From the IMG/VR virus record IMGVR_UViG_3300043395_001986, positions 1 to 64,000 of that record: a stretch of 64,000 nt of DNA. One strand, written 5' to 3'. A model generated the notes under the pieces. It was not told the DNA's origin. It saw only the letters and a program-made list of their open reading frames with translations, and ran no database searches. Of this stretch, positions 3-22,560 are shown in pieces. The stretch's first letter is position 1. Every line of letters starts with the position of its first letter. A program made the translations under genes and the position numbers. This DNA comes from a virus (taxonomy: Duplodnaviria; Heunggongvirae; Uroviricota; Caudoviricetes).

Positions 3-755
3 ATGATGTATCATAAGAGGTATAGAATGGGTATTCACTTTGGAAAGGTACATACAATGGAAAGACCTGATATAATGAAAAGATTTCTTAACCACAATTA
101 CGAAAAGTTATGGATAACAGCATTACAGCATCAAGATTCAAATGTATTTACAAAAGAAGAAAGGGATATAATAGAAAATAAATTTCATAACAATGATTGG
201 ATATATGAACCATTTAGAGATGTAGATAATATATTTAATAATCGTTGTTATCTATCTAATATAGAAATGTGTCTTCAATCACAAATAGAAGCAGTATATG
301 AGACATCAATGGATGGACCTCAAAGAGATGTATCAACCGGTCCACAATATCGTAAATTGAATGAGAAATCTTTAAAGCATGCTCTCCTAATGAAACCATT
401 TATACATACATCACCACATTCACATAAGATATGGAAAGATTATGGTTTCATTCCCTATAAACCTTTATATCGTAGTGACATATGGGATGTATGGGAAGGT
501 GATTCGGTTGGTTTGGGTAATTCGGGTCATTGGCAATCTGCTCAATTGATTAGTGATAATATCGAATGGTTAATGAGTATGAGTGATGAAAAGTTTAATT
601 CGATACTAATGGAGTGTGAAGATATCCTTTTAATGAATAGAAAGATAGTGGAAACGGAAGCGGAAAAGGATATAGTGAGTGATTTGGTTTCTTTGTTCAA
701 AGGGATTGATGATGATAAGATTATTCGTAAAATGGTTAAAAGAGAGCTTATTTAA
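3..755 (+). CDS. GT10-like (fucosyltransferase-motif) putative glycosyltransferase, probably 5'-truncated; C-terminal KRELI tag
   Basis: AVYETS...NEKSLKHALLMKPFI...YGF matches the E-T/S...EK...P-F-I motif also seen in 2277, 3547 and 4775; ORF begins at the window edge. Confidence 0.45.
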   Translation: MMYHKRYRMGIHFGKVHTMERPDIMKRFLNHNYEKLWITALQHQDSNVFTKEERDIIENKFHNNDWIYEPFRDVDNIFNNRCYLSNIEMCLQSQIEAVYETSMDGPQRDVSTGPQYRKLNEKSLKHALLMKPFIHTSPHSHKIWKDYGFIPYKPLYRSDIWDVWEGDSVGLGNSGHWQSAQLISDNIEWLMSMSDEKFNSILMECEDILLMNRKIVETEAEKDIVSDLVSLFKGIDDDKIIRKMVKRELI

Positions 756-767
756 TACTTATAGTAT

Positions 768-1202
768 ATGAAAAGAGAAGATGTAAATGTAAGCGACAAC
801 GATAAGAGTGAAATGTTATCGGGTATCGCTCAAATCCTACGCGGAGTAGAAGATATGGGTAATAGAAAAGAATTAGCTAAACAACAAATCATTCAATTAA
901 AGGATGAAGGTATTGAGTTCGATATTAAAGAGTTCTTACTAATGTGTGGGTTTGGTGGTGATATGGCGGGTATTGAAACCACATCCATTACTTCAGAAAT
1001 GAGTAATAACGATATACACTTCAAACAATTATTAAAGATATATAGTAGAGGAGGGATGCTTAAAAAGGCAATATCTAATTACCTATTCCCTACTAAAAAT
1101 GGTGTTTCTATCTCTGATATAGCCAAAGAACTTCGTCATATGGATTATGATGATGTTACTGAATTAGAGAAGAAGCTTCGTATTGATATACATAAGTACT
1201 AA
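768..1202 (+). CDS. hypothetical protein
   Basis: 144-aa ORF preceded by TACTTATA motif. Confidence 0.6.
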   Translation: MKREDVNVSDNDKSEMLSGIAQILRGVEDMGNRKELAKQQIIQLKDEGIEFDIKEFLLMCGFGGDMAGIETTSITSEMSNNDIHFKQLLKIYSRGGMLKKAISNYLFPTKNGVSISDIAKELRHMDYDDVTELEKKLRIDIHKY

Positions 1203-1206
1203 TCCT

Positions 1207-1467
1207 ATGATGCTCCAACTTAATCCTATGATACCCATAGTGAGAGTTTCCGATAAGATGGAAGGGTATGCGTTCATTTGCATTGATTACTCCCAAGAAC
1301 ACAATCTACTCTTTGTATGTGCTATGGATGATGGGGAGATATGGACGTTGAACAATAAGGAAATCCGCTTTTGTAAAAACATTTCAATGGAACGAACAAA
1401 GATTAACTATGAAGAAACTAAACTACACACCGAAGAAATTGATAAACGATTTGGTCCTGGTCTTTAA
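1207..1467 (+). CDS. conserved phage hypothetical protein (LQLNP...IDY..EH...GE.WT..N..IR)
   Basis: ORF track 1183..1467; ATG at 1207/1210 avoids overlap with the upstream gene. Confidence 0.6.
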   Translation: MMLQLNPMIPIVRVSDKMEGYAFICIDYSQEHNLLFVCAMDDGEIWTLNNKEIRFCKNISMERTKINYEETKLHTEEIDKRFGPGL

Positions 1468-1612
1468 TTTAATTGCCGGCTTCTTTGCTATCCTTATGGC
1501 GACACCATTACTTATCATATTTTTTATTTATGTCCTAATTACCCGTCCTATTAAAGAGTGGTGGCGAGGTGTTAAAAAAAGAAAGCGTTATGATAGTACA
1601 TCTATACAATAA
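1409..1612 (+). CDS. small membrane protein
   Basis: Long hydrophobic stretch followed by a basic tail. Confidence 0.5.
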   Translation: MKKLNYTPKKLINDLVLVFNLIAGFFAILMATPLLIIFFIYVLITRPIKEWWRGVKKRKRYDSTSIQ

Positions 1613-2204
1613 TGGTGAACTTTGTATTCCGTTAAAACACGGATCGAGATTTTTTAAATCATATTATTACGATTTGTATCCGGATTTTAAAGAGAGTTCA
1701 TTTCGAAATATAGATGAATGGATATATGATGTAAAATGGATTATTGTTAGAGACCCGATAGAGCATTTAAAATCCGCGCTCAATACCGAGATAATGACCG
1801 ATGATATGTTAGATGATACGGAAGGAGTAATTGAGTATTTAAAAAGACATTATTATAAACCTCATTTTGGAAATCATTATGATTGTGAAATGCACAAATC
1901 ATTATACGAATCCGGATGTGATTTTAAAGTCATTGAATTAAAAAAGTTTAGTAATTTTTTAGCTTCCGAAACTGGATTATATAAACCATCTAAAAAAATT
2001 AAAGATTGGATTCCTATTGGTAAAAAAAATAAACCAATTTATATTAGTAGAGAAGAATTTTGGTATGAATTTTGTAAAAGATACCCAAAACAATCATTGG
2101 AATTAGTAGAACTTGCTTTAAAAGATAAAGAATATTATGATAAATTGTTATCCGAAAAGGAATATAAAATAGATATTAATAAAAGTTTAATAAAATTAAT
2201 ATAA
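1590..2204 (+). CDS. sulfotransferase-like protein; C-terminal KSLIKLI tag
   Basis: IPLKHGSRF (5'-PAPS loop-like) and IVRDPIEHLKS (RDP..R..S-like 3'-PAPS motif). Confidence 0.55.
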   Translation: MIVHLYNNGELCIPLKHGSRFFKSYYYDLYPDFKESSFRNIDEWIYDVKWIIVRDPIEHLKSALNTEIMTDDMLDDTEGVIEYLKRHYYKPHFGNHYDCEMHKSLYESGCDFKVIELKKFSNFLASETGLYKPSKKIKDWIPIGKKNKPIYISREEFWYEFCKRYPKQSLELVELALKDKEYYDKLLSEKEYKIDINKSLIKLI

Positions 2205-2276
2205 ACTATCAATAGGTGAAACATAAAAATAAAAAAAGAAAAATCGACTAATTCCCCCCAACCCCCCGCCGAATAA

Positions 2277-3218
2277 ATGGTAACAAACATTAATAATGAA
2301 TTCATTTTTAGAGCAAATGAGCCTCATATGGCGGAATCCGCGGAAGTGGATTATATGGGAAAACATAATATGCATTTCTTTATAACAGGTAATTTATTAG
2401 CAAAAAATAAAGAAGATGACGAATTTAGGTATGTAACTTGGAACTATTTTTTAGACCATCCACCTTTTATTGAAAAAAATAAACTTGATTTAAATTTTGT
2501 AAATACTTTTGATTTTAAATACAAAGTATTATGTTATAATAGAAGGGCACACGCTCATAGAAAGATATTAGTTTATAATATATTAAAAGATGAATTATTG
2601 AAAAATAATACATTATTTAGTTTGGGATATGAACAGGAATATAATGATAAAATAACCACAGAAATAATTGCGGGTTGTACTGAAAATTTGGTCGAAGCAA
2701 ACAATATATTTGATTATTTTACAAATTTAAAAAAAGATATATCCTTTGATAAAAATATAAATTTAAATAAACCAGATCCTGGACGTAGTTTTGTAATGAA
2801 AGATTATAAAAAAACGTTTGTATCGTTGGTAACTGAAACATTAGCTACAAATGATAAATTATTTTTTTCAGAAAAAACATATAAACCAATAGTTGCTCAA
2901 CAACCATTTATTATTATGGGAAATCCAAACTCATTAAAATACTTAAAAAGTATCGGATTTAAAACATTTGATAGGTGGTGGGATGAAAGTTATGATGAAG
3001 AAACAAATTTTAAGATACGATTTGAAAAAATATTAAATATAGTAAGAAAAATATGTAGTATGTCGTATAATGAATTATATACAATAAGAAAAGAAATTGA
3101 CTCGGTGTGTATACACAACTACAAACATTATTTAAAAAGTTCAGGTGTAACAGAAGAATTAAAAAAATTAGGGTTTATCCCACAAATATATCAAAATATT
3201 AATAGGAAATTAATTTAA
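2277..3218 (+). CDS. GT10-like putative glycosyltransferase; C-terminal RKLI tag
   Basis: VSLVTET...FFSEKTYKPIVAQQPFIIMG...GFKTFDRWWDESYD, resembling the alpha-1,3-fucosyltransferase motif. Confidence 0.55.
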   Translation: MVTNINNEFIFRANEPHMAESAEVDYMGKHNMHFFITGNLLAKNKEDDEFRYVTWNYFLDHPPFIEKNKLDLNFVNTFDFKYKVLCYNRRAHAHRKILVYNILKDELLKNNTLFSLGYEQEYNDKITTEIIAGCTENLVEANNIFDYFTNLKKDISFDKNINLNKPDPGRSFVMKDYKKTFVSLVTETLATNDKLFFSEKTYKPIVAQQPFIIMGNPNSLKYLKSIGFKTFDRWWDESYDEETNFKIRFEKILNIVRKICSMSYNELYTIRKEIDSVCIHNYKHYLKSSGVTEELKKLGFIPQIYQNINRKLI

Positions 3219-3253
3219 CTATATATTTATTATTGAATTAAAAACATATAACT

Positions 3254-3460: not shown

Positions 3461-3483
3461 TAAATCTAATTAAAAATAAATTT

Positions 3484-3512
3484 AGGGGATATGAATTAAT
3501 ATCCCCTTTTTT
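3484..3512 (+). terminator. rho-independent terminator
   Basis: AGGGGATAT-GAATTA-ATATCCCCT followed by a T-tract. Confidence 0.85.
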
Positions 3513-3546
3513 AGTTTGTTTCTATTTATAAGAGATAAAATTTGTT

Positions 3547-5965: not shown

Positions 5966-6007
5966 AGGTTACTTATTATTCACGAAACCAAAACTTAATG
6001 GACGAGG

Positions 6008-6244
6008 GTGATAAACAGAATAAAGAAACTCAAAGAGAGAGAACACCGATTGACGGTATACAAAGATACTTCGCTAATGTTAGCGATGTTCTTTCTTCCG
6101 TTTGGCTACGATGCCCTATTCAAAATGATTATGGATATTACAGATTCATATTGGATAGCAGACGTAGTTTTTTATTCTATTTCAGGATGTTTTTGGTTAT
6201 CGTATATCTTTCTTTCGAATTATATAAACAAACTAAATAAGTAA
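6008..6244 (+). CDS. small membrane protein (2 predicted TM segments)
   Basis: GTG start, two hydrophobic segments. Confidence 0.6.
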   Translation: MINRIKKLKEREHRLTVYKDTSLMLAMFFLPFGYDALFKMIMDITDSYWIADVVFYSISGCFWLSYIFLSNYINKLNK

Positions 6245-6248
6245 CACT

Positions 6249-6374
6249 ATGGCAAAAGCAAAATCAGCTAGTTCTAACAAAGTATCCTTTGGAAAAAGAA
6301 AAACAGGAAAAGCAGTAAAAAGTTATAACAAACATGATAGAAAAGAAAAAAATTACAGAGGACAAGGTAGATAA
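6249..6374 (+). CDS. small basic protein ending YRGQGR (absent from ORF track)
   Basis: Hand translation MAKAKSASSNKVSFGKRKTGKAVKSYNKHDRKEKNYRGQGR, 41 aa; resembles small basic YRGQG-terminal proteins of large phages. Confidence 0.7.
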   Translation: MAKAKSASSNKVSFGKRKTGKAVKSYNKHDRKEKNYRGQGR

Positions 6375-7440
6375 TATTGTATTAGCAGGATGCTCCTTTT
6401 CTGATACTGGAATTAGGTTTCCTAACGAACCTGTTTTAGTAAAACAAATTAATTACGATAATGAATTAATAGATGTGGGTGGATTACCTGGAGAAGCTAA
6501 AAATCAACATTTTATTGAAATTGAACTTAATAACCAAAACAAACAACATAATGTAACATTGTATAATGTTGCAAGAGGTTCGTTTGGTAATCATGTTATA
6601 ACACATAGATTTAAAGAAAAGGTAAACGATATATTAGAACAAAATCCAAACGCTAAAATAGTTGGTATCGTTCAATTAAGTGCATTATTAAGAGCAGATT
6701 CTGTTCAGGTAGAAATCAACACAAAAGATTTTCCATTTGATTATGAAAATCCTTTTTTAAAACAAAAAATATATTCATTAGAAACTTTTTACGAAAAGCA
6801 TTTAGATAATATTATTGATTTAAAACAATTTTGCGATTCAAAAAATATTGAGGTGTTAGTTTACTTTGGTTGGGCAAATCTATATAGTAATTATTTTTCT
6901 CAATATCCTAATTTAATTCCAAAATTAAATAAAGTTAAAGAAATTGTTACATTTATAGAATATGATGTACATGAAGACGAATGTGCAAATTATTGTGCTG
7001 GACCTAAAAACGTAACTTCTAAATATTTTAAAACTATTGATGAAAAAGAAATAGAAATATATAAATTAGGTGCAGATAATTTTGGCGGAATTGCAGAATA
7101 CGCTAGAGAAAAATTGGAAATAGGATATCGTTATATTTCTTGGTTTGATGCACATCCATCAACTGCTTCTCATTTTCTTTGGTACAAAGATATAGTAAGA
7201 CCATTTTTATTAAAAACGGGTGTATTAAATCCAGAATCAGAATTTCCTAAAAATGTAGAAAATAATTTAAAAGTTATATGCGATGTTCAAAAAAAAAGAT
7301 TTATTAAATGGTTTGGATTAGAATATGTGCATGAAGATGCACACGCTACATTTAAACGATATAAAGATACCTGGTATAAATCAATGTCTTACGAAATTGA
7401 ATATGTATTAGAAGAAAAAGTAAAACAATTTAGTAAGTGA
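6334..7440 (+). CDS. SGNH/GDSL-like hydrolase or acyltransferase
   Basis: Block I GCSFS, block II ARGSFGN, block V DAHP. Confidence 0.65.
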   Translation: MIEKKKITEDKVDNIVLAGCSFSDTGIRFPNEPVLVKQINYDNELIDVGGLPGEAKNQHFIEIELNNQNKQHNVTLYNVARGSFGNHVITHRFKEKVNDILEQNPNAKIVGIVQLSALLRADSVQVEINTKDFPFDYENPFLKQKIYSLETFYEKHLDNIIDLKQFCDSKNIEVLVYFGWANLYSNYFSQYPNLIPKLNKVKEIVTFIEYDVHEDECANYCAGPKNVTSKYFKTIDEKEIEIYKLGADNFGGIAEYAREKLEIGYRYISWFDAHPSTASHFLWYKDIVRPFLLKTGVLNPESEFPKNVENNLKVICDVQKKRFIKWFGLEYVHEDAHATFKRYKDTWYKSMSYEIEYVLEEKVKQFSK

Positions 7441-8147
7441 AAACATTAGCAGAAATACAAAACGATTATGGTTTTTATGAAAAAGAAACCGATACACGTT
7501 TTACTCTAAATGGTATTTATCCAGAACATCAAATAGTAAAGGATTACCCATCTTTGGATTCAAAAGAGTGGAAGTTAATACCAAATAATGAAGATGTTTA
7601 TATTCCATTCTTTATTAAGATAGGAGATACCAAATATATTTGTGAAATGTTATATAAAGAATTATATCAAAGTTATTCCGAAGGTAATATGTATTTTACA
7701 TTAGATGATATATTGGGAATAGATATAGATACAACAAAAACTTACAATTATATAGTAGAAAAATATAAAGATAAATTAAAAGATGCTGGCATAGAGGAAT
7801 TTAAATTACATTCTAACGATGGAAATAGACCAACGGATATTGATATATTAAATCAATTTTTATATCTATTCGGTAAGAATGCAGATAGAGTTCATGCAAA
7901 GTATAAACTAAAAAGATTATTTGATGCAAACGATAATCCAACTGCAGATTTTCCTGCTAATGTAGCGGCATCTAAAGCAGCAAGAGATAAAATAAGAAGT
8001 GTAGACCAATATTTAGTAGATACTACTTCTACAAGCTCTACCCAAACATCGCAAACATACAATGTATCGACTCCACAAAAACCAGCACAATCACAAACAA
8101 CCTTACAGCAACTTTGGGGAGGATTTAAATCAATATTTGGTGGTTAA
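7437..8147 (+). CDS. hypothetical protein
   Basis: 236-aa ORF, GTG start, S/T/Q-rich tail. Confidence 0.6.
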   Translation: MKTLAEIQNDYGFYEKETDTRFTLNGIYPEHQIVKDYPSLDSKEWKLIPNNEDVYIPFFIKIGDTKYICEMLYKELYQSYSEGNMYFTLDDILGIDIDTTKTYNYIVEKYKDKLKDAGIEEFKLHSNDGNRPTDIDILNQFLYLFGKNADRVHAKYKLKRLFDANDNPTADFPANVAASKAARDKIRSVDQYLVDTTSTSSTQTSQTYNVSTPQKPAQSQTTLQQLWGGFKSIFGG

Positions 8148-8163
8148 TTAATATTTATAGTAT

Positions 8164-8541
8164 ATGGATATTCGTAAACTAGATAAAATGGTTGATATGT
8201 ATGTAAAGGTAGATTGGAGAAATTACTTTGATGAGGCAGCATCTCCTGCTGTACACAACTACATTAATAATAATGCAGATACAATTTATCCTTGGTTGTT
8301 TGATGTAATAAAGCATGCAATAGAAAAAAAATTAGAAGAAGTAGCAATTGTAAAATTCATTGACTCTAAAATGTATGCTACTATAAAAAAAGAAGATTAC
8401 CCTGATTTATTAGAAAAAATAATGAATCATCATATTATAAAAGAAGAATATGAAAAATGTGCAAGCATACGAGATATGATTGCAGATTTAAAAAATCCAA
8501 AAAAATTAAAAAGAAAATATACTAAAAAAACTCCAAAATAA
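8164..8541 (+). CDS. UVR (UvrB/C) motif protein
   Basis: EEYEKCASIRD matches E.YE.AA..RD. Confidence 0.6.
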   Translation: MDIRKLDKMVDMYVKVDWRNYFDEAASPAVHNYINNNADTIYPWLFDVIKHAIEKKLEEVAIVKFIDSKMYATIKKEDYPDLLEKIMNHHIIKEEYEKCASIRDMIADLKNPKKLKRKYTKKTPK

Positions 8542-8551
8542 ATTAAATAAT

Positions 8552-9112
8552 ATGGAAAGGTTACATACATTTAAAAATTTTCTTTCAAAAGAAGAATGTT
8601 ATTCTATTTTAGAAAAATATAAAGTAGAATTAAATTTAAAACCAGCCGAGATTCAATTCAATGGCCAAAAAGTTGTTAACGATAAAAGAAAATCATCCAT
8701 AGCCTTTATAGATAATATAAATGAAATAGATGAACGATTAAAAGATACTTTAAAAAATCTCATACAATTAAAAGGATATGAACTTACTGGATTAGGTCCG
8801 TATCAATTTACTGAATATAAAACTGGAGAATACTATGCTTGGCATACGGATTCTTCAAATGAGCCGGAATATAAAGATAGATTCTGTTCTATTGTCATTC
8901 AACTAAATGATGAATATAGTGGTGGATATTTACAATTAATAGATGAAAGTGAGGATAATATATATCAATGCGATCATGGAGTCGGTACAATGTATATATT
9001 TTATTCAAACATAAAACATAGAGTTATACCAGTAACAGAAGGAGTTAGATATTCCCTAGTTAATTGGGTTTCATTGAAAAAATTAAATGATTTCAAAAAA
9101 ACATTAATATAA
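8552..9112 (+). CDS. 2OG-Fe(II) oxygenase (prolyl-hydroxylase-like); KKTLI tag
   Basis: WHTD...KHRVIPVTEGVRYSLVNW. Confidence 0.9.
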   Translation: MERLHTFKNFLSKEECYSILEKYKVELNLKPAEIQFNGQKVVNDKRKSSIAFIDNINEIDERLKDTLKNLIQLKGYELTGLGPYQFTEYKTGEYYAWHTDSSNEPEYKDRFCSIVIQLNDEYSGGYLQLIDESEDNIYQCDHGVGTMYIFYSNIKHRVIPVTEGVRYSLVNWVSLKKLNDFKKTLI

Positions 9113-9879
9113 TGCTTATTGATGATAAATTTATATTTGTTTCATTGCCAAGAAGAGCATCAACTTCATTTCATTATTCGTGTTTACTAAATGGATTGAA
9201 TGTAAAAAATATAGGCCCAGTTGATTGGAGTATAGCAAATTCTAAAATTGATTTTAAAAATATAAATGAATCAAATATAATGGATTATATAGCTCATGGA
9301 CATGAGAGAATTGTTGAAGAAAAAATGATATACGGAAACATATATCCAATCATTGCAATATATAGAAATAGACATGAATCATTTTATTCTTATTTTAAAC
9401 ATTTAATTTACGATTTAAACAGAGCAGGATTCACAAAAATAGCTAAACATCTTTCAGAATTACAAACAAAAGATTTATTTTTTTTTAAAACAAATGATTT
9501 AAAATCATCAACATCACGTAGTGAAGTAATAATAAATTATTTATATGATAATAAATTAATTGAAAAAAAAAGTTATAAAAAATCAAAAAATCAAATTTTA
9601 AATACGGACGAATATGTCATAAATGTGATAGATATACTACTGGCTCCTACATCTCATTGGCATAATAACGATACTGATATAATTTGGTTTGATATAAATA
9701 ATTTATCAAAATTAGAAGAATGGGTATCAAACATTACAAATAAGCCATTTAAATTAAAAAAATTAAATTCAAATAATAAAATTAAATGTAATTTAGAATT
9801 AAACGAAGAATTTATTTATTATTATAATAATGTTTATGATTACTATGATTTACCTAAAAATAAAAAAACATTAATATAA
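9112..9879 (+). CDS. sulfotransferase-like protein; KKTLI tag
   Basis: FIFVSLPRRASTSF (PAPS loop), RNRHESFYS. Confidence 0.65.
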   Translation: MLIDDKFIFVSLPRRASTSFHYSCLLNGLNVKNIGPVDWSIANSKIDFKNINESNIMDYIAHGHERIVEEKMIYGNIYPIIAIYRNRHESFYSYFKHLIYDLNRAGFTKIAKHLSELQTKDLFFFKTNDLKSSTSRSEVIINYLYDNKLIEKKSYKKSKNQILNTDEYVINVIDILLAPTSHWHNNDTDIIWFDINNLSKLEEWVSNITNKPFKLKKLNSNNKIKCNLELNEEFIYYYNNVYDYYDLPKNKKTLI

Positions 9880-11087
9880 TGAAAAATATTGTTATAGTAG
9901 GTGGTGGAACAGCTGGTTGGCTATCTGCATTTTTTTTAAAAAAAAATTATAAAGATTGTAATATATGTTTAATAGAAAGTTCTAAAATTGGAATATTAGG
10001 AGCAGGCGAAGGTGCAACACCAAATCTCCAATCAATGCTTATTCAAGGATTTGGGTTTAATGAGGAAGATTTTTTAAAGAAAATAAATGGAACAAAAAAA
10101 TATGGAATTAATTTTACTAATTGGAGTAGGGATTTAAATAAAAATTTTGTTCATGGGTTTGAAGAAGATGGGACTGAAAACGAAATATATTCTTATCATT
10201 TTAATGCAAGATTGTTTTCAGAATATTTAAAAAATAAAAATATAGAAAAAGGTGTTCGGCACATAGATGCAGAAATTGATAAATTTGTAAAAAAAAATAA
10301 TAAAATAAAAAAAATTATTTTAAAAAATGGAGAAGAAGTAAAAACAGATTTTGTAATAGATTGTTCCGGATTTGCAAGATTAATTATAGGAAATGAATAT
10401 AATACAAAATGGAATTCATATGAAGATGAATTATTAGTTAATTCCGCTATACCATTTTTTATAAAAGAAGAAAATAATAATATAAATCAAAAAACAACAG
10501 CAGAAGCAATAGATTGGGGCTGGATGTGGAAAATCCCACTCAAAGATAGATGGGGATGTGGCTATCTGTATAATGATAACATGATAGATGATGATTTTAT
10601 TCAAAAGGAAATTTATAGATTATATGGTGATAAAAATATACAAATCAATAAAAAAATAAAATTCAAACCGGGTTCATATGAAGATGTATGGGTAGAAAAT
10701 TGTGTAGCAATTGGATTATCTAGTGGGTTTTTAGAACCATTAGAAGCAACTTCTATAATGACAATTGTATTTCAATTAAGACAATTATCTAATAATATTT
10801 TCGATGATTCAAAAAGAAATGAATACAATTATAATGTAAAGCAATTTAATTTTCAAAATATGATGTTTATACGACATCATTATAATTGTGATAGATGTGA
10901 TACTGAATTTTGGCGAACATATAAGTCCAAAAAAATACCAAATATTTTACAAGAAATTTATGATTCATTTTATACTAAAAAAACATTATCTGATATTTTT
11001 AAAACAGAGTATTTAGCTTTTACAAAAAAACAATATATACATATATATAATAATAATTTTAGTAAAAATAAAAAAACACTAATATGA
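9879..11087 (+). CDS. flavin-dependent tryptophan halogenase family protein; KKTLI tag
   Basis: GGGTAGW, GAGEGATP, K..I.F.NW, GWMWKIP (WxWxIP), FLEPLEATSI. Confidence 0.9.
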   Translation: MKNIVIVGGGTAGWLSAFFLKKNYKDCNICLIESSKIGILGAGEGATPNLQSMLIQGFGFNEEDFLKKINGTKKYGINFTNWSRDLNKNFVHGFEEDGTENEIYSYHFNARLFSEYLKNKNIEKGVRHIDAEIDKFVKKNNKIKKIILKNGEEVKTDFVIDCSGFARLIIGNEYNTKWNSYEDELLVNSAIPFFIKEENNNINQKTTAEAIDWGWMWKIPLKDRWGCGYLYNDNMIDDDFIQKEIYRLYGDKNIQINKKIKFKPGSYEDVWVENCVAIGLSSGFLEPLEATSIMTIVFQLRQLSNNIFDDSKRNEYNYNVKQFNFQNMMFIRHHYNCDRCDTEFWRTYKSKKIPNILQEIYDSFYTKKTLSDIFKTEYLAFTKKQYIHIYNNNFSKNKKTLI

Positions 11088-11725
11088 CTTTTCTAGAAGA
11101 AATAAAATTTAGTCCTACTTTATCAATATGGAAATCGAAATTTGATTTAACAAATAGAAATAAATTAATACAAGAATGCGAAGAACATATAAAAAACTTA
11201 CCGGACGTTTGGAATGATGGATATGGTTACTATATGAATGATAGTTTAAAATATAAAGGATATGTTGATATACCAATAGAAAAAGAACTAGATTCAATTA
11301 TGTTGACAGCAATTAATGAATGTATTGAGATATACTCTGAAAAATTTAATGAAATTAAAGCAGATATATGGATAAATGTTGTTAGAGCAAAAAATCCAAT
11401 ACAAAAAAACTATAAATCAAATGGAGGTTTAATTTTTCATAATCATGTTGATTTAAATATTAAAAATAAATTAACACCACCATTATATACTTTTGTTTGT
11501 TATATACAAATGCCAGATAATCTAACCAATGATGATGGTGTATTATTTATGGAAGATGTTGATAAATCAGTTTTTTCAATATTACCAAAAGATGGTGATA
11601 TATTGATTATGAAAGGTGATTTACCGCATGTTCCAAACTATGCACCAAATTCTACAAAAGATAGAATTGTATTAGCAGGTAGTGTTAGAATGGATTTTTC
11701 TAAATTAAATAAAAGTTTAATATAA
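11084..11725 (+). CDS. 2OG-Fe(II)/DSBH oxygenase-like protein; NKSLI tag
   Basis: WIN...HNH...YIQMP...LPH...RIVLAG. Confidence 0.7.
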   Translation: MTFLEEIKFSPTLSIWKSKFDLTNRNKLIQECEEHIKNLPDVWNDGYGYYMNDSLKYKGYVDIPIEKELDSIMLTAINECIEIYSEKFNEIKADIWINVVRAKNPIQKNYKSNGGLIFHNHVDLNIKNKLTPPLYTFVCYIQMPDNLTNDDGVLFMEDVDKSVFSILPKDGDILIMKGDLPHVPNYAPNSTKDRIVLAGSVRMDFSKLNKSLI

Positions 11726-12450
11726 TGTTAGTAGAAAATAAATTTATATACCTTAATTTACCAAGATGCGCATCTACATCATTTCATATAGCATGCCTTA
11801 AATACGAATTGGATATTAAATATTATGATGATATTATTCATACATTAAATCCACCAAAATTAAATAAAAATGATAACAATGAAATAATAGCTGATAATTT
11901 ATCACATACACATGAAAAGTTAATTAATTTGCAAAAAAAATTTGGTTATGATTTACCTGTTATTGCTGTAAAAAGGAATTCATATGAAAGGTATATATCA
12001 TTATGGAAACATATAATAGATGAACTTTATAGAATAGGTGAATTTGAAACTTTTAATATATTTAAGTCTTTAAATGTTGATGAATTATTATCATATACAG
12101 AAATTGATATATCATCAAATGAGAAAAAATATGAGTTTATAAAAAAATTCTTTAAAAGATACAACATTCCCAGAACCGATGCATATGTAACCGCAATGAT
12201 ATATATGATTATGAGTCCAACTTCACATTGGCATAATCATAATAAATCAATTATATGGTTTGATATACAAAATATAAAAGAATTAGAAAATTGGGTATCT
12301 GAAAAATTAAGTTTTGATTTTAAATTGGAAAAAACAAATTCAAGTCAACACTTTGAATGTAATATAATAAATGATGAATATTTTAAAAAAAAGTATGATT
12401 CTATATATAAAAATTATGATAACCCAAAAAATATTAAATCGTTAATATAA
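11725..12450 (+). CDS. sulfotransferase-like protein, paralog of 9112; IKSLI tag
   Basis: FIYLNLPRCASTSF, RNSYERYISLW, shared PTSHWHN. Confidence 0.7.
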   Translation: MLVENKFIYLNLPRCASTSFHIACLKYELDIKYYDDIIHTLNPPKLNKNDNNEIIADNLSHTHEKLINLQKKFGYDLPVIAVKRNSYERYISLWKHIIDELYRIGEFETFNIFKSLNVDELLSYTEIDISSNEKKYEFIKKFFKRYNIPRTDAYVTAMIYMIMSPTSHWHNHNKSIIWFDIQNIKELENWVSEKLSFDFKLEKTNSSQHFECNIINDEYFKKKYDSIYKNYDNPKNIKSLI

Positions 12451-12451
12451 T

Positions 12452-12739
12452 ATGATAAATTTTAAAGAAATATTTATTGCTTGGAAAACATCATTTAATC
12501 CAAGCGAATCGGAATCAAAAATTGCAAAAGATAGATTAGAAATTTGTATAAGTTGTGAATATAAAAAAGAAGTTTTTGAAAAAAAAGAATGGTCGGCAAT
12601 ATGTGGTAAATGTGGATGTCCATTAATGAAAAAAGTATTTTCAAAAGAAATTAACCCATGTCCAATGGGATATTGGATGGAATCGGATAATAAAAATGGA
12701 TTAACTATTCAAACAAAAAATAAAAAATCGTTTTTATAA
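12452..12739 (+). CDS. small Cys-rich metal-binding protein; KKSFL tag
   Basis: RLEICISC...CGKCGCP...CPMGYW. Confidence 0.65.
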   Translation: MINFKEIFIAWKTSFNPSESESKIAKDRLEICISCEYKKEVFEKKEWSAICGKCGCPLMKKVFSKEINPCPMGYWMESDNKNGLTIQTKNKKSFL

Positions 12740-12747
12740 ACTTAACA

Positions 12748-12755
12748 TATTTATA
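12748..12755 (+). promoter_or_regulatory. putative phage late promoter TATTTATA before the Hint protein
   Basis: The same motif recurs in most intergenic gaps. Confidence 0.55.
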
Positions 12756-12773
12756 AATGTAAATAAAAAAATT

Positions 12774-14267
12774 ATGAAAGGTACAATAATAGGAAGTGAT
12801 TTATTACAAAAAGAAGATTCGGTAAAAGTCATTGAAATAAATACAAATACAACCATTTACAATGATGGTGCTGAATTTTTAGACTATACGGCACTATTTT
12901 CGGTTTTGGTAGCAAATAATATAAATGAATTACATTTTATATACACAGCTGGAAATAGTTATCTACCAACCAATGCAGCATCATTTGTATTTGAAGATAA
13001 ATTAAAAGAAAAATGTTTAGAACACAATATAGAATATTATCCTTATATAGTTCCTGCTAATTCAATTACAATACCATATGTTGAAGATGCATCAAATAAA
13101 TTTATTTTAAGACAAGCATTTGATACTACCGCATTAGTTGATGAAACATATTGTGCAGATAAATTTGAATTTTTAAATTTAATGAGTGGTTCAAATTATA
13201 TACCAAATACATTTTTTAATGATTCCGATTTAGGATTTGATACAATAAATTCTATAAATTTAGAAAATCCAAATGAACCAAATTATATTATAAAATCTAA
13301 AAGTCCAAGATACGATTCAAAAAACTATCCTGCAATATACGGAATAGAAACAGAAAATGAACTAATTGATTTAAAAAATTCTCTTCCTTCTGACCATTTA
13401 ATTCAAGAATTTATTTATGATGATTTAAATATTATAGATGGTAAATGGGCTGTTATAAGAAGTATTGATATTATATATGGAAACGAATTAGATGTTATTA
13501 ATATGGGAGGATATACCCATTCTACCAGAATACCTTTAAGTTTTGCATCAAATGAATTTGTAGAAGGTACTAAAAAATATAATCAAAAGACAAGATACAA
13601 ATATATTAATAAACAATTAGGAAATTTTGCAACAATAGATTATCACGTAGATAGTGATACAATGATATTAGATTATACAGGTTCGTTAGTAGATGTTGAT
13701 ACTATTCAATTGGGAACATTTGTAAAATCAGTAGATTTCACAGATTTAAGTGGTAGTTCAATACAACATAACATATCTGATATTACAACGTTTGGCTGGG
13801 ATGGTACTTTAGAAAAAACAATTGAAACATTAACGGATATAACATCATCATTGGTTGGATTATCTTCTGCTTCTGTTGATACTATTTTTGTAAAAATAAC
13901 ATTAGAAAATGGATTAAATTGGGATGATTCACCATCTGCAACTTACTATATTGAAGAGTCTGGCTCATTATCAACAAGATGGGAAAAGATTAATAATATG
14001 TATATTGGTGATAAATTGATTGTAAAAAACAATACCACAAATCAATTAGAAACGATAGAAATAACTAATTTAGAAATGGTATATGCACAGAAAACAATAT
14101 ATGATTTAGACTTTGAAGATTCTGATTTGTTTTTAGTTGATATTGGAGATGGATTATTTGGTATAATGCACAACAGCTGTTGGTGTTGTGGTAACCCATG
14201 CGGACACTGGTGTTGTTCACAATATTGCCCAATCTGCTACCAAAACTTACCTCCCGGATGTAAATAA
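12774..14267 (+). CDS. circularly permuted ATP-grasp-like + Hint domain + C-terminal Cys-rich peptide fusion
   Basis: N-terminal GSD...VIEINTN, later DKFEF, YIIK, LIQEFI; Hint about aa 291-467 ending IYDLDF...MHN; then SCWCCGNPCGHWCCSQYCPICYQNLPPGCK. Confidence 0.7.
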   Translation: MKGTIIGSDLLQKEDSVKVIEINTNTTIYNDGAEFLDYTALFSVLVANNINELHFIYTAGNSYLPTNAASFVFEDKLKEKCLEHNIEYYPYIVPANSITIPYVEDASNKFILRQAFDTTALVDETYCADKFEFLNLMSGSNYIPNTFFNDSDLGFDTINSINLENPNEPNYIIKSKSPRYDSKNYPAIYGIETENELIDLKNSLPSDHLIQEFIYDDLNIIDGKWAVIRSIDIIYGNELDVINMGGYTHSTRIPLSFASNEFVEGTKKYNQKTRYKYINKQLGNFATIDYHVDSDTMILDYTGSLVDVDTIQLGTFVKSVDFTDLSGSSIQHNISDITTFGWDGTLEKTIETLTDITSSLVGLSSASVDTIFVKITLENGLNWDDSPSATYYIEESGSLSTRWEKINNMYIGDKLIVKNNTTNQLETIEITNLEMVYAQKTIYDLDFEDSDLFLVDIGDGLFGIMHNSCWCCGNPCGHWCCSQYCPICYQNLPPGCK

Positions 14268-14284
14268 TTAAATTAAAAAATATT

Positions 14285-14422
14285 ATGGCAAATAAAAGAA
14301 TAGAGAGACCATCTCAAATAATCAAAGTAGATATAAAACCTATATCAAACGAATTAAAGACAAAAATAGCAACGGCATTTCAAACAATTGTATCAAAAAT
14401 TAAAGAAAAACATTTATCTTAA
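14285..14422 (+). CDS. small basic 45-aa protein (absent from ORF track)
   Basis: Hand translation MANKRIERPSQIIKVDIKPISNELKTKIATAFQTIVSKIKEKHLS; fills the gap, A-rich leader. Confidence 0.65.
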   Translation: MANKRIERPSQIIKVDIKPISNELKTKIATAFQTIVSKIKEKHLS

Positions 14423-14454
14423 TTTTGATAATATTGTATTTTTGATAAATTGTT

Positions 14455-15003
14455 ATGTTAACCAACTTTTCACACACTGCTCTTTTTACTTCCGATGAAA
14501 TAAACAAAATATTAAATCATATGGGAGAAACATCGGATACACTATATCCGGTTTATATGGATGGGAATTGGAATGATATTGGTTGTAAAATGCAAAGTAG
14601 CGATTTGGAATGGAATGATGAGATTAATTGGTTTTTTATAAAATTATCAAAATGGATTGATAGTTTACAATTAGGTATAAAATTAGTAAATCCCCCACAT
14701 GCTGTATTTAGAAAGTATGTAGTTGGGGATTTTTTTATTAAACATATAGACCAACCTCCCAACCCAAAACCAATAAGATATATGTCGGTTTGTATTCAAC
14801 TTTCAAACGAATCGGAATATGAAGGTGGAAATGTATATGTTTATGCAAAAAATAATAAACAATTAATACCAAAAACAATAGGATATACTTACGCATTTGG
14901 AATAAAAGTTCCACATGAAGTAACACCGATTACAAACGGAATACGAAAATCGCTGACTATATTTGTAAGTGAAAATCATATTAAAAGAACTAATTTATTA
15001 TAG
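14455..15003 (+). CDS. 2OG-Fe(II) oxygenase; RTNLL tag
   Basis: KHID...PHEVTPITNGIRKSL. Confidence 0.9.
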   Translation: MLTNFSHTALFTSDEINKILNHMGETSDTLYPVYMDGNWNDIGCKMQSSDLEWNDEINWFFIKLSKWIDSLQLGIKLVNPPHAVFRKYVVGDFFIKHIDQPPNPKPIRYMSVCIQLSNESEYEGGNVYVYAKNNKQLIPKTIGYTYAFGIKVPHEVTPITNGIRKSLTIFVSENHIKRTNLL

Positions 15004-16077
15004 ATGTCATTTGATTTAAAAGATTATATTTGCACAATTCCTTTTAAAAGATTAGAAATACACCCAGAAGCGTATGCATTATGTTGTCCTGAATGGTTAA
15101 AAAAACGTTTACCAAAAGGAATTGATAAACTGCCGGATGTATGGAATTCCGAGGAATCTACTGAAATAAGGAAATCAATAGTAGATGGTAGTTATAAATA
15201 CTGCAGTCACATTACGTGTCCACATTTAAGCGAATTAAAAAATTTAAAAAATAAAAATGTATCACCTATAAAACATAGAAAGGAATTAGATGATGATTTT
15301 TGGGATGTATATGATGAAGTAACTGGTAGAATGAAAATAGGCCCAAGAACTATTCACATGAGTTTTGACCTAACATGTAATTATAAATGTCCATCTTGTA
15401 GGGTTGAAATGTTTGTAGAAAATTCAGAAGGTATAAAAAGAATCAATACTACAATTGAGGAAATGGAAAAATTATTTGCAAAAGATTTAGAATTAATATA
15501 CACCATAGGTAGTGGTGACCCATTTGCATCGGTTGCATTTAGAAACTATTTAAGAAATTTTGACCCTAAAAAATATCCAAAATTAAAAACTATAATGTTG
15601 CACACAAATGCTTCTCTTTGGAATAAAAAAATGTGGGATAGTATGCCAAACATACACAAATATGTAACAACTTGTGAAATATCAATTGATGCGGGTACAA
15701 AACATACATACGAAAATGTAACAAGATTAGGTGGTAATTGGGAAAATCTAATGGATAATTTAAATTTTATATCAACAATACCTAATTTAAAAGTTATTAG
15801 AACATCCTTTGTTGTACAACAGGCAAATTATACAGAAATGGAAATATTTTTACAAAAAATGAGAAATATTTTTACAAAAAATGGAAAAGTATATTTTGGT
15901 AGAGTAACAAAATGGGGACACATTTCTGAATCTACTTTTAAATTTTTAGATGTTGCGAATCCTGAGCATCCTGAACATCAGCTATTTTTAAATGAATTAA
16001 AAAAGGTCTCACACAATCCATATGTATTACATAATATGTACGAATTATCTCAATCAAAAAATTTAAATTTGATATAA
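15004..16077 (+). CDS. radical SAM protein with N-terminal SPASM/twitch-like Cys cluster; NLNLI tag
   Basis: CNYKCPSC; N-terminal C..PF...CC...W...C....CP. Confidence 0.9.
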   Translation: MSFDLKDYICTIPFKRLEIHPEAYALCCPEWLKKRLPKGIDKLPDVWNSEESTEIRKSIVDGSYKYCSHITCPHLSELKNLKNKNVSPIKHRKELDDDFWDVYDEVTGRMKIGPRTIHMSFDLTCNYKCPSCRVEMFVENSEGIKRINTTIEEMEKLFAKDLELIYTIGSGDPFASVAFRNYLRNFDPKKYPKLKTIMLHTNASLWNKKMWDSMPNIHKYVTTCEISIDAGTKHTYENVTRLGGNWENLMDNLNFISTIPNLKVIRTSFVVQQANYTEMEIFLQKMRNIFTKNGKVYFGRVTKWGHISESTFKFLDVANPEHPEHQLFLNELKKVSHNPYVLHNMYELSQSKNLNLI

Positions 16078-16078
16078 G

Positions 16079-16603
16079 ATGATATGGATAAGTGAAAATT
16101 TTAATAGACTATCGAATAGTGAATTAGAATTTCTAAAAAATAAGTGCAAGAATTTTATTTTAACAGAATCTCCAATATTATATAATAATGGTTTAACTAA
16201 AAATTATTATCATAGATATAAATTTAATGTTGATGATTTAGAATTTAAAGAAATAATTAATAAAATAACGGAACATATAAAAAAAGAAACAAATCACAAT
16301 GAGATTGAATTATGGACTATCCAAATAAATAAAATATTCGAAGGGTCTAATGAGGAAGATGAATTGCATGTAGATAGTTGTGATTTAACTTTTATATTGT
16401 ATCTAAATAATGAGTTTGAAGGTGGTGAGTTTGAATATATAAATCAAGATAAAAAAATTATAAAAATAAAACCAAAAGAAAATTTTTCTATAATATCAAA
16501 CGATAAATTAATACACAGAGTATTACCAGTAAGTAGTGGAGAAAGATTTAGTTTGGTTATGTTTTTTAATATAGGTAAAAAAAATAAATTAACTTTAATT
16601 TAG
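16079..16603 (+). CDS. 2OG-Fe(II) oxygenase; KLTLI tag
   Basis: LHVD...YLN..FEGG...HRVLPVSSGERFSLV. Confidence 0.9.
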   Translation: MIWISENFNRLSNSELEFLKNKCKNFILTESPILYNNGLTKNYYHRYKFNVDDLEFKEIINKITEHIKKETNHNEIELWTIQINKIFEGSNEEDELHVDSCDLTFILYLNNEFEGGEFEYINQDKKIIKIKPKENFSIISNDKLIHRVLPVSSGERFSLVMFFNIGKKNKLTLI

Positions 16604-16612
16604 TTGTTTATT

Positions 16613-17131
16613 ATGAAAATTTTAATAATTTCATTACCTAGAACTGGTTCAACATCGTTAATGAAACTAACAGCAAAAAAACATAATTTAAATTATATAC
16701 ACGAGCCGTTTAATAAAATATTTTACGAAAAATATAAAAATTATGATTGGATATCTAATGATAATTATGTTATAAAATCTATTATAGACCAATTACCAGA
16801 AGGTGAGACGGACATAATATCTTACTGGGAAAAGTTTCATAAAAATTTTGATAAAATCATATTACTTTCAAGAAAAGATTTGGTTGATTGTTCCAAAAGT
16901 TTAGCATATGCAGCATACCACACCGAAAAAGCATATTGGTCAAACAAATACATATGGGAATTAACACCAAATTTAGAAGAAACTTATAGATATATTATAT
17001 TTTTGAATAAATTAATGTTTGATATAAAAAATAGATTAAATTTAGATATAATATATTATGAAGATATTTTTGATATAAATTCAGATGAAAGATTAAGAAT
17101 TAATAAAAATATAAAAAAAAAGTTATTATAA
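16613..17131 (+). CDS. sulfotransferase-like (Stf0-like) protein; KKKLL tag
   Basis: ISLPRTGSTSL, HEPF, LSRKD, IYYEDI. Confidence 0.75.
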   Translation: MKILIISLPRTGSTSLMKLTAKKHNLNYIHEPFNKIFYEKYKNYDWISNDNYVIKSIIDQLPEGETDIISYWEKFHKNFDKIILLSRKDLVDCSKSLAYAAYHTEKAYWSNKYIWELTPNLEETYRYIIFLNKLMFDIKNRLNLDIIYYEDIFDINSDERLRINKNIKKKLL

Positions 17132-17264: not shown

Positions 17265-17792
17265 ATGCTAAAACAAATTGTTACAATTTTAATTCTTTTT
17301 TCATTCCTTTCTTGTAAAAAAGAAGAACCAATAATAGTAAAAAAAGAAAATGTCTATAAAATAGAAATAGACGGGAGATTACCATTTGATGTAAATGGGT
17401 ATTATCATCTTAAATTGGATTCTACAAAAAACCAAACAATTCATAGAATTTCTGGATCATTAAGATTAAATGGAGAAATACCATTTCCTTCTGAAAAAAT
17501 CGAATGGAATAGTAATTTGTATTGGTATATAGTTCAAGGAGATACAATTGCTAGGATAACAAAAACATATATAAATTATTTCACAGGTAATGTTACTGTC
17601 GTATCTTTACCACCATTAGTTTCAAATAAAACCGAATTAGTACCAACAATAAATTCAGCTAGTTATAGTGGATATGGTGTTGGTGATATCAATACCGTCA
17701 TTGCACCCATATATAAAATGAAAGGTGATACAATGATAATTAAAGCATCAATCGAAAAAGAATTTAAAATAACAAAAATAGTATTAGAATGA
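17265..17792 (+). CDS. putative lipoprotein
   Basis: Signal peptide with lipobox FLSC followed by KKEE. Confidence 0.7.
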   Translation: MLKQIVTILILFSFLSCKKEEPIIVKKENVYKIEIDGRLPFDVNGYYHLKLDSTKNQTIHRISGSLRLNGEIPFPSEKIEWNSNLYWYIVQGDTIARITKTYINYFTGNVTVVSLPPLVSNKTELVPTINSASYSGYGVGDINTVIAPIYKMKGDTMIIKASIEKEFKITKIVLE

Positions 17793-18229
17793 TATATTGG
17801 TTTACAGGTCAGCCGGCGGCGGGAAAAACAACATTAGCGAACTGGTTAGCAGCATCGTTTCCTACACAAAAAGTAAAAATTGTAGATGGAGATGATATTA
17901 GAGAAATTTTTGATAACAAAGATTATTCAGAAGCCGGAAGAAGAAAGAACATAGATTTAGCACAAAAGATTGCACAATTCTTACACAAAAAAGGTGAGAT
18001 AGCAATAGTGTCATTAGTTTCTCCATACAGAGACCAAAGAGAAGAATTTAAACAAAAAATGGGAAATGATTTGGTAGAAATATATGTACATTGTTTTACG
18101 GATAGAGGTAGGACACATTTTCACGTTCCTAATTACGAACCGCCATTGGAAAATTTTATTGATGTAGATACTACCAATGATAAAGAATTTCAATCTATAC
18201 AAAAAATAAGAGAAAAATTAGGTTTATAA
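17789..18229 (+). CDS. cysC: adenylylsulfate (APS) kinase
   Basis: WFTGQPAAGKTT, DGDDIR, VSLVSPYR, YEPP. Confidence 0.9.
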   Translation: MIYWFTGQPAAGKTTLANWLAASFPTQKVKIVDGDDIREIFDNKDYSEAGRRKNIDLAQKIAQFLHKKGEIAIVSLVSPYRDQREEFKQKMGNDLVEIYVHCFTDRGRTHFHVPNYEPPLENFIDVDTTNDKEFQSIQKIREKLGL

Positions 18230-18253: not shown

Positions 18254-18664
18254 ATGAAAAAATACGCATTATTCATCGGAAGATGGCAAACATGGCACAA
18301 AGGACATGAGTGGTTAATCAATCAACAATTAGAAAAAGGAAAGAATTGTTGGGTAGCAATTAGAGATGTGCAAGTGGATGAAAACAATCCAAAATCGGCA
18401 CAACAAGTTTTAAAAGAATTATCAAACGAACCATTCTTTACAAACAATTTTGATAAAATTTTATTATCAATAATACCAGATATTGAAAGTGTAAACTATG
18501 GTAGAGCGGTTGGATATGAGGTGATATATCACGAACCACCAAAAGAAATCGAACAAATTAGTGGAACTGCAATTAGAAAGAAATACATCGACTCTAATGG
18601 AGATGTGATTGTTTACAATATAGATACCGAAGATGATAGTAGAAAGAAAGAGACACATAGCTAA
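18254..18664 (+). CDS. HxGH (cytidylyltransferase-like) nucleotidyltransferase
   Basis: GRWQTWHKGH, ISGTAIR. Confidence 0.8.
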   Translation: MKKYALFIGRWQTWHKGHEWLINQQLEKGKNCWVAIRDVQVDENNPKSAQQVLKELSNEPFFTNNFDKILLSIIPDIESVNYGRAVGYEVIYHEPPKEIEQISGTAIRKKYIDSNGDVIVYNIDTEDDSRKKETHS

Positions 18665-22554: not shown

Positions 22555-22560
22555 AAAATT

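Follow-up and report, generated by a model that had tools for sequence, protein, structure and literature searches.

We analysed the first 64 kb (64,000 nucleotides, hereafter the window) of a single 237,307-base viral contig, IMG/VR record IMGVR_UViG_3300043395_001986, and in particular a cassette of tightly packed plus-strand genes at positions 8552-17131. At its core lies a 497-residue fusion gene (12774..14267), which we call the hub, joining an ATP-grasp ligase domain to a Hint domain and a Cys-rich tail. Around it stand 2-oxoglutarate (2OG)-dependent oxygenases, sulfotransferase-like proteins, a flavin-dependent halogenase, a radical S-adenosylmethionine (SAM) enzyme, a Cys-rich protein and a small conserved open reading frame (ORF). 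An original prediction, made from the DNA letters, had described the region as a system resembling the pathways of peptides that ribosomes make and that are modified after translation (RiPPs), and each ORF that it named proved real, in place and on the plus strand. The cassette looks like a virus-only, conserved module for tailoring a peptide or a protein, built on the 497-residue protein and a 45-residue neighbour. That these two, a set of enzymes sharing a C-terminal tag, and a dedicated supply of 3'-phosphoadenosine 5'-phosphosulfate (PAPS) form a functional unit is well supported.

Genes of the cassette and their conservation

Four 2OG-Fe(II) oxygenases had been proposed. Three of them pass the Pfam cut-off, namely a prolyl 4-hydroxylase (P4H)-like enzyme at 8552..9112 (PF13640, 4.7e-16) and those at 14455..15003 (PF13640, 7.9e-07) and 16079..16603 (PF13640, 1.9e-09; PF03171, 2.9e-05), and the fourth, a divergent oxygenase-like protein at 11084..11725, finds its only match in phrog_81, a 2OG oxygenase family (5.1e-08). 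The 402-residue halogenase (9879..11087) belongs to the Trp-halogenase family, as expected (PF04820, 5e-94; PrnA, 1.1e-58; VirX1, 1.4e-41), and keeps the GGGTAGW, WxWxIP and FLEPLE motifs and the equivalents of Lys79 and Glu346, with numbering read off the PrnA alignment. It is shorter than PrnA (402 versus ~530 residues): its residue 96 aligns with PrnA residue 150, ~130 scaffold residues are absent, and with its short C-terminus it lacks the full-length substrate module (~500-540 residues). Contigs from two riverine RNA libraries, X12 and X17, join window position 9693 to 12281 and thereby drop 2587 bases holding the halogenase and the 2OG-like gene, so that the first sulfotransferase-like gene runs into the second. 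This join, which matches related loci devoid of a halogenase, would be a strain variant arising by recombination between the two paralogues; with a 24-letter flank, it is also a possible artefact.

The three sulfotransferase-like proteins carry motifs resembling the 5'-phosphosulfate-binding (PSB) loop, LPRxASTSF or LPRTGSTS, and have no Pfam, NCBIfam or PHROG match of their own; the earlier assignment has indirect support from this motif, from Atlas neighbours and from a weak match of one homologue. The first (9112..9879, LPRRASTSF) is of the Sulfotransfer_2 type, its Atlas neighbours being Sulfotransfer_2 clusters at 0.96. The second (11725..12450, LPRCASTSF) is also Sulfotransfer_2-like, and its homologue in another locus (L001) matches PF03567 weakly. 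The third, a small protein at 16604..17131 (LPRTGSTS), has Stf0/Sulfotransfer_3 models as Atlas structure neighbours (TM-score 0.63-0.68). The radical SAM protein (15004..16077) is identified by a twitch-domain model (NCBIfam N_Twi_rSAM, 6.8e-18), a Pfam match (5.5e-05) and a CxxxCxxC motif, with both scores under the curated cut-offs. The 95-residue Cys-rich protein (Cys95; 12452..12739; phrog_13558, 8.5e-10) has six invariant Cys residues in its alignment, in line with its earlier description as Cys-rich. It is DUF6171-like, with weak matches to that family in 14 of 32 members; a search of its family profile against the PDB returned nothing significant. At L088 and L090, two distant loci, Cys95 still adjoins the fusion gene.

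The same enzyme families accompany the fusion gene in ~85 loci from other samples, at 53-86% identity. Their conserved order begins with adenosine 5'-phosphosulfate (APS) kinase, a small adenylyltransferase, 2OG oxygenase, halogenase, 2OG oxygenase, a further 2OG oxygenase in some loci and a sulfotransferase, and ends with Cys95, the hub, the small ORF, a 2OG oxygenase in some loci, a sulfotransferase and, in some, the radical SAM gene. Because this order recurs in so many loci from other samples, the cassette is no chance neighbourhood. The co-occurrence foreseen in the original prediction, of families known for peptide or protein tailoring, was borne out.

More broadly, >620 proteins match the hub family among 8,000 scored candidates, falling into 264 clusters at 50% identity and 241 IMG/VR stretches. 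The family is spread through freshwater and marine viromes; no cultured or annotated member was found. A tblastn search of 50,697 GenBank phages with the window protein and two distant members gave no full-length relative, the distant members drawing only intein matches to their second Hint domain, and a scan of 185,579 prokaryote genomes, with close-clade patterns that leave room for distant cellular relatives, gave none either. In these sequence searches the family was found only in viruses. Nor did the literature (mostly open-access papers) or the family libraries yield a description of an ATP-grasp-Hint-peptide layout, in agreement with the earlier statement that no described phage pathway with this layout is known.

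Distant family members, which we sampled through seven further contexts, show that the enzyme set is not fixed: depending on the lineage, SET methyltransferases, one other methyltransferase and additional radical SAM genes join it. In locus L092 (1-7559, minus strand) a hub relative without the Cys-rich tail stands beside a row of five radical SAM genes together with a PhyH dioxygenase, which lie on the opposite strand, and a SET-domain protein and a biotin/lipoyl-like protein follow downstream, an enzyme set much larger than that of the window.

The ligase-Hint protein and its 45-residue partner

Given 24 close sequences, AlphaFold2 returned a model of the fusion protein with a predicted local distance difference test score (pLDDT) of 48.6. 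A confident model needed 130 diverse homologues; pLDDT then reached 90.1 and the predicted TM-score (pTM) 0.85, with only residues 471-497 disordered (pLDDT <50). Structure prediction and fold search reproduce the layout first proposed, an ATP-grasp domain followed by a Hint domain and a tail rich in Cys, Trp, Pro and Tyr, and on these models we regard the three-part architecture as almost certain. Pfam, PHROG and NCBIfam gave the 497-residue protein only chance-level matches (Imm26, 0.002; NusB, 0.005), and the Pfam Hint models did not detect its Hint domain.

Residues 1-282 (12774..13619) are predicted to form a circularly permuted ATP-grasp ligase of the GspS/YgiC type. The closest folds are YgiC (7uka, Z 9.8), GspS (2io7, 9.1) and 2wyo (8.8), aligned over 199-226 residues at a root-mean-square deviation (rmsd) of 4.2-4.6; the Z values, which come from a predicted model, are middling. 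Glutathione synthetases are among the structural neighbours at Z 8.8. Across 130 relatives, down to ~22% identity, D9 is kept in 127, E21, N23, K174 and R229 in 129 each, and R113 and D123 in 127-129. In hhalign, D9, E21 and N23 line up with D318, E330 and N332 of GspS, a type of residue that we take to bind Mg, just as we take the conserved Lys and Arg to bind phosphate; the alignment of the family with E. coli GspS (E 0.14, 21 columns) is not significant and gives the motif register only. The domain shares with GspS, YgiC, YjfC and eukaryotic glutathione synthetase the permuted order in which a D...E-x-N metal motif comes first, at a spacing equal to that of GspS. Unlike these ligases, it spans only ~280 residues, has no detectable sequence similarity to them and apparently needs a separate 45-residue protein. 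Modelled fold and residue conservation thus support a catalytically plausible amide ligase of the GspS type.

The Hint domain (residues 289-467, 13638..14174, with the fold matched over 289-468) packs against the ligase domain in the model. Its fold is found by Foldseek (E 1e-8) and is closest to BIL2 (6tmm; Z 16.3, rmsd 2.3 over 143 residues), the NpuDnaB intein (4o1r; Z 16.0, rmsd 2.0 over 139 residues), hedgehog (Z 15.5) and the bacterial intein-like (BIL) domain 2lwy of Clostridium thermocellum (Z 15.5), and at the sequence level the KlbA intein is hit by the family profile (1.4e-08). An N-terminal nucleophile is missing: the column equivalent to Cys1 (residue 291) holds H in 51, K in 20, G in 16, S in 10 and I in 8 relatives, and Cys in 0 of 130. 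The Thr-x-x-His of block B is absent as well, the T-H-D-H of KlbA facing t-p-s-s-s-y, without any His, in a stretch that includes P387, S388 and Y391 of the window protein. The position after the terminal Asn (+1) is A in 25, S in 20, P in 13, V in 9, Y in 9 and G in 6. With no Cys1, no block B His and A, S, P or V at +1, splicing and N-terminal cleavage are excluded. By contrast with these losses, the C-terminal pair is retained, H466 in 124 and N467 in 129 of the 130 relatives. Asn cyclisation at the C-terminal junction is the sole canonical Hint reaction left, and the invariance of Asn467 argues that this reaction is in use; we consider cleavage there fairly probable.

The arrangement resembles that of PT-HINT and BIL domains, which sit just 5' of a variable C-terminal module thought to be freed by autoproteolysis and not by splicing. 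The hub differs from them in that its Hint domain lacks an N-terminal Cys or Ser and the block B His, is fused to and packed on an enzyme, and carries a Cys-rich peptide of ~30 residues where theirs carry a toxin domain; its family is, moreover, virus-confined.

Directly downstream lies the 45-residue ORF (14285..14422), whose conservation in every related locus upholds its earlier inclusion in the cassette. Six of the seven distant contexts have, after the hub gene, a small ORF with the ending K-H-[LST]; that of L090 has 33 residues and another ending. When the hub (with ATP and Mg) and the 45-residue protein were modelled as a complex, three runs gave an interface score (ipSAE) of 0.84, whereas the best of three controls scored 0.04, with at least 75% contact agreement between runs and a partner pLDDT of at least 73. 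Of 80 solved complexes, 58 attain the mark applied to such scores, and of 110 mismatched pairs 2 do; these counts hold only approximately here since our own alignments and ligands were used. In the predicted complex the small protein contacts hub residues 6-35, 121-142 and 221-253 as well as Hint residues 371-435. Around D9, E21 and N23 the contacted residues are the even-numbered ones, which would place it on the back of the metal-binding sheet. These models make it likely that the 45-residue protein is a subunit, and we read it as completing a minimal ligase rather than serving as a substrate.

C-terminal tag, Cys-rich tail and flanking genes

Nearly every tailoring enzyme of the cassette ends in K-x-[TS]-L-[IL]. 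KKTLI closes the 2OG oxygenase at 8552, the sulfotransferase-like protein at 9112 and the halogenase; the other endings are NKSLI (2OG-like, 11084), IKSLI (sulfotransferase-like, 11725), KKSFL (Cys95), RTNLL (2OG oxygenase, 14455), NLNLI (radical SAM), KLTLI (2OG oxygenase, 16079) and KKKLL (sulfotransferase-like, 16604). Most orthologues retain the tag: 109 of 112 for the 2OG oxygenase of the 8552 type, 71 of 72 for the 11084 type, 66 of 67, 20 of 20 and 61 of 67 for the sulfotransferase-like proteins of the 9112, 11725 and 16604 types, 74 of 80 for Cys95 and 20 of 23 for the radical SAM enzyme. Neither the hub nor the small ORF nor the small adenylyltransferase has it, and the APS kinase is mostly untagged (8 of 30 orthologues fit the pattern). 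Genome-wide, the pattern fits 17 of 285 ORFs, and 11 of these lie in 3-17131. Three plus-strand ORFs of unknown family within 3..3218, ending in RELI, IKLI and RKLI and without a Pfam match, are possible further members. Near the other contig end (223684-233493), ORFs of unknown family end in KPKLL, NNLL and NIEII; the tagged set may run across the contig ends, if the genome is circular or circularly permuted.

Loci that contain the hub gene, which are related to one another, have 690 tagged ORFs among 1554 (44%), as against 9 of 1226 (0.7%) in 80 viral halogenase loci without it; given this relatedness a p-value carries no meaning, whereas the contrast itself does. In HTVC008M and P-SSM2, neither the halogenase nor the 2OG genes bear the tag. 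Hub lineages that lack a Cys-rich tail have at least 10 tagged neighbours. The tag thus goes with the hub gene rather than with the Cys tail; the usual K-[LIV] end of the hub's own tail resembles it. An origin at the DNA level, through overlapping start codons or a junction motif, was considered and rejected: codons differ between copies, tags also precede intergenic gaps, and loci that are just as rich in AT but have no hub gene lack them. Since codon choice and downstream sequence vary, the tag acts at the protein level, and we think it very likely that the enzymes are functionally tied to the hub.

The tail itself comprises 30 residues (468-497; 14175..14264) with 9 Cys and is a putative released peptide; in the model it does not dock on the hub body. 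Tails of the close clade keep a C-W-C...C-G...C...C-x2-C framework and the K-[LIV] end. Most family members have Cys-rich tails of 20-116 residues, and the Cys count is 6, 8, 10, 12 or 16 in 58 of 65 representative tails; a few have 5-7 residues after His-Asn and no Cys. At least five residues follow the Asn in every member, the flanking tail running from 5 to >150 residues. Between clades, tails differ completely in length and sequence where the body can still be aligned. In some members a canonical Hint domain, starting with Cys and ending in VHNK, comes after the Cys-rich segment; in others, a second Hint domain follows the first directly, and some distant members have no domain beyond the Cys segment. 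In 7 of 55 sampled members the Cys segment precedes a Peptidase_S74 self-cleaving chaperone domain, as known from phage fibres, where it normally ends trimeric fibres and not enzymes; the window protein has no S74 domain. In several lineages the Cys segment would therefore be bracketed by autoprocessing junctions on both sides, which is the best comparative sign that it is meant for excision. The order Hint(HN)-peptide-(Cys)Hint recalls the layout engineered for split-intein cyclisation, a likeness that we take as a lead only.

The cassette continues past 17131 to an untagged APS kinase (17789..18229, plus strand; PF01583, 2.6e-20; TIGR00455, 7.3e-21) and a 136-residue protein of the HxGH adenylyltransferase superfamily (18254..18664, plus strand). 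The latter has HxGH and ISGTAIR motifs and weak matches of the nicotinamide mononucleotide adenylyltransferase (NMNAT) and cytidylyltransferase types, all below cut-off (best, 1.9e-04). The small protein is always paired with the kinase, and the pair recurs in ~30 related loci and also in the distant loci L092 and L179. Possibly the small protein is a minimal sulfate adenylyltransferase, unusually small for one, in which case the two genes could amount to a minimal PAPS synthase. The kinase and the candidate adenylyltransferase are what would be expected if the phage provided PAPS for sulfation. A 175-residue protein (17265-17792) with a lipoprotein-like N-terminus, a hydrophobic stretch ending in LSC, separates the kinase from the final sulfotransferase-like gene; no family matches it, and just six related loci have homologues.

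As for the wider setting, the baseplate wedge protein shares 41% identity with its counterpart in Microcystis phage Mel-JY01 and 38% with those of the Flavobacterium 'immuto' phages, which makes the source an uncultured large myovirus. The window has a G+C content of ~27% and almost all of its genes on the plus strand, and near-identical DNA is present in freshwater and riverine metagenomes. Four riverine metatranscriptome libraries contain short contigs that match the window at 13.1-14.7 kb with 0-4 differences; we rejected these as proof of expression, as DNA carry-over is possible and the contigs give neither strand nor level. For the T4 late-promoter motif TATAAATA we counted 20 occurrences where 27.8 were expected, hence no enrichment. 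The octamer TATTTATA occurs on the plus strand at window positions 3523, 8152, 12748, 41839 and 46685, lying 12-29 bases 5' of several start codons, that of the 497-residue gene among them; without overall enrichment, it could be part of a phage promoter. Downstream of the cassette, at 21658-31483, the window encodes a UvdE UV endonuclease (5.4e-66), an NDP-sugar epimerase/dehydratase (2.2e-40), a glycosyltransferase family 2 (GT2)-like protein and a Nol-type carbamoyltransferase (4.5e-126).

Proposed mechanism, alternatives and implications

We propose the following RiPP-like mechanism, to which, taken as a whole, we assign a probability of roughly 0.4. The tagged enzymes would be recruited to the hub via their tags and would modify the tethered Cys-, Trp-, Tyr- and Pro-rich tail by hydroxylation of Pro or other residues, halogenation of Trp, sulfation of Tyr or of newly formed hydroxyls, and radical SAM chemistry on Cys. 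Asn467 would then cyclise and release a 30-mer with a free N-terminus, which could fold into a disulfide-paired or cross-linked peptide, as the even Cys numbers suggest. The ATP-grasp domain might finally act on a free carboxylate, most simply the K-[LIV]-COOH of the tail, to ligate or cyclise it. Of the parts, that the tail is a substrate of the enzymes falls somewhat short of even odds, and that the ligase acts on the tail we regard as doubtful.

Several observations weigh against this mechanism. At locus L088, where replication genes surround a homologue with 41% identity, its sole companions from the cassette are the Cys-rich protein and the small ORF, and no oxygenase or halogenase is found within 4.5 kb upstream or 10 kb downstream. 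The original prediction had named homologues without the tailoring enzymes as evidence against it, and this one tells partly in that direction. Conversely, the tail-less relatives of L092 and L180, with 5-7 residues and no Cys, retain APS kinase, 2OG, sulfotransferase-like and SET genes, all tagged, so that the Cys tail can be neither a universal nor the sole substrate of the enzymes. A halogenase is missing from six loci whose tails retain Trp, and the earlier suggestion that tail Trp is the substrate of the halogenase found no support; a correlation between halogenase presence and tail Trp was looked for and rejected, Trp being kept regardless. Tails were expected to vary more than the rest of the protein. 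They do diverge between clades, but within the close clade they are as conserved as the body (1.08 versus ~1.0 bits), a pattern as compatible with a folded or metal-binding module as with a product. Metallothionein-like metal sites, too, have the spacings C-x-C, CC and C-x2-C. The assignment of the ligase draws on a predicted structure at middling Z and on motif conservation, and no sequence-level match to ATP-grasp families was found. Finally, the ~85 loci are related to one another, and counts taken from them overstate their independence. It is because the tail-less lineages and L088 weaken the case for tail decoration that we hold the whole mechanism at 0.4. The RiPP-like interpretation is supported in part: a gene-encoded candidate precursor is clustered with tailoring enzymes in ~85 loci.

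Compared with known RiPP clusters, such as those that pair graspetides with ATP-grasp maturases or Cys-rich ranthipeptide (SCIFF) precursors with radical SAM enzymes, and those with peptide halogenases, the cassette is alike in encoding a peptide beside hydroxylase, halogenase, sulfotransferase and radical SAM genes, and in that the peptide diverges strongly between clades and the rest is conserved. It differs in that the 'leader' is a 467-residue enzyme and self-protease, without a RiPP recognition element (RRE) or a leader peptidase, in the C-terminal tag shared by the enzymes, and in the tail-less members that keep them.

The tag invites a different view of the hub. We tentatively suggest that the hub and its partner read, or chemically use, one C-terminal tag on a varying set of 5-15 unrelated tailoring enzymes, either as an assembly line on a tethered substrate or for ATP-dependent C-terminal protein ligation with the Hint-freed peptide. 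A strong rival to the RiPP-like mechanism lies close to this, although we rate it as unlikely by itself: the hub would be a tag-directed ligase or dock whose ATP-grasp domain, or another surface shared with the 45-residue partner, recognises the tags and that assembles the enzymes into one complex working on another protein, for example a virion protein, or ligates something onto their C-terminal carboxylates, with the Cys tail an accessory and Hint cleavage serving to mature or activate the hub or to supply an amine partner. The dependence of the tag on the hub gene and not on the tail, seen both in the tail-less lineages and in the contrast between loci with and without the hub, speaks for it, as do the His-Asn pair kept where only 5-7 residues follow and the tag-like K-[LIV] end of the tail. 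RimK, TTL, LysX and GspS act on C-terminal carboxylates, and activation of a terminal carboxylate is common to all structural neighbours of the ligase domain. Against this rival, a ligase that worked once and brought its own amine would be stoichiometric and wasteful, and most members carry a Cys-rich tail with a conserved framework.

The RiPP-like mechanism must also be weighed against a small-molecule, secondary-metabolite pathway, in which a free amino acid or a small non-ribosomal amide would be tailored and assembled by the ATP-grasp domain, with the Hint domain and tail regulatory. Tandem 2OG oxygenases beside a Trp-halogenase-type enzyme are familiar from cyanophage and pelagiphage arrays, including that of the VirX1 halogenase, and the window halogenase shares 30-35% identity with its counterparts in HTVC008M, P-SSM2 and S-PM2. 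Metabolite synthesis has been proposed for the cyanophage dioxygenase-halogenase arrays by Iyer et al. (2010; PMC2938197), who also described bacterial hydroxylase-sulfotransferase-PAPS operons with protein substrates and no ligase-Hint gene. In contrast to the present cassette, with its added sulfotransferases and PAPS supply, the phages with these arrays lack a ligase-Hint gene and their enzymes are untagged. The halogenase keeps the catalytic residues of free-Trp halogenases, and the closest folds to the ligase include the small-molecule ligases GspS, YgiC and Cp1B, the last from E-64 biosynthesis (PMC12568646). We nonetheless find this pathway improbable: the halogenase is short of ~130 residues of the Trp-halogenase scaffold, the P4H-like PF13640 enzymes and the SET methyltransferases among the protein-directed families that join the set in distant loci point to protein substrates, and a shared protein tag and an invariant terminal Asn would go unexplained.

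About equally improbable is that nothing is released, the Hint domain being a structural remnant and the Cys tail a permanent metal-binding or disulfide mini-domain. Purifying selection on the tail framework in the close clade, metallothionein-like Cys spacings and the loss of Cys1 and of the block B Thr-x-x-His are in keeping with it. Against it stand the retention of Asn467 and His466 down to ~22% identity, despite tails of 5 to >150 residues, the second Hint or S74 self-cleaving domain after the Cys segment in some members, and a tail that is predicted to be disordered and undocked. That DNA or virion glycans are what the enzymes act on, with the fusion gene a mere neighbour, is very improbable, for, even with sugar epimerase, glycosyltransferase-like and carbamoyltransferase genes in the same window, thymidylate-synthase-like and Mom-like genes near the hub of L088 and the classical role of Sulfotransfer_2 enzymes as carbohydrate sulfotransferases, the tag is common to the tailoring enzymes, of the glycan genes checked only the GT2-like one (25249-25881, YNLF) is tag-like, and the hub, Cys95, small ORF and tagged enzymes travel together through very different genomic settings.

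What would the RiPP-like mechanism mean for these viruses? If the peptide is released and decorated, the hub would define the first virus-encoded ribosomal-peptide pathway whose leader is an enzyme together with its own protease. It would also give the abundant phage halogenases and 2OG oxygenases, first noted in cyanophage genomes, a natural substrate at last. If instead the shared tag is the key, the cassette would represent an undescribed viral way to recruit, or to ligate, a toolbox of enzymes.

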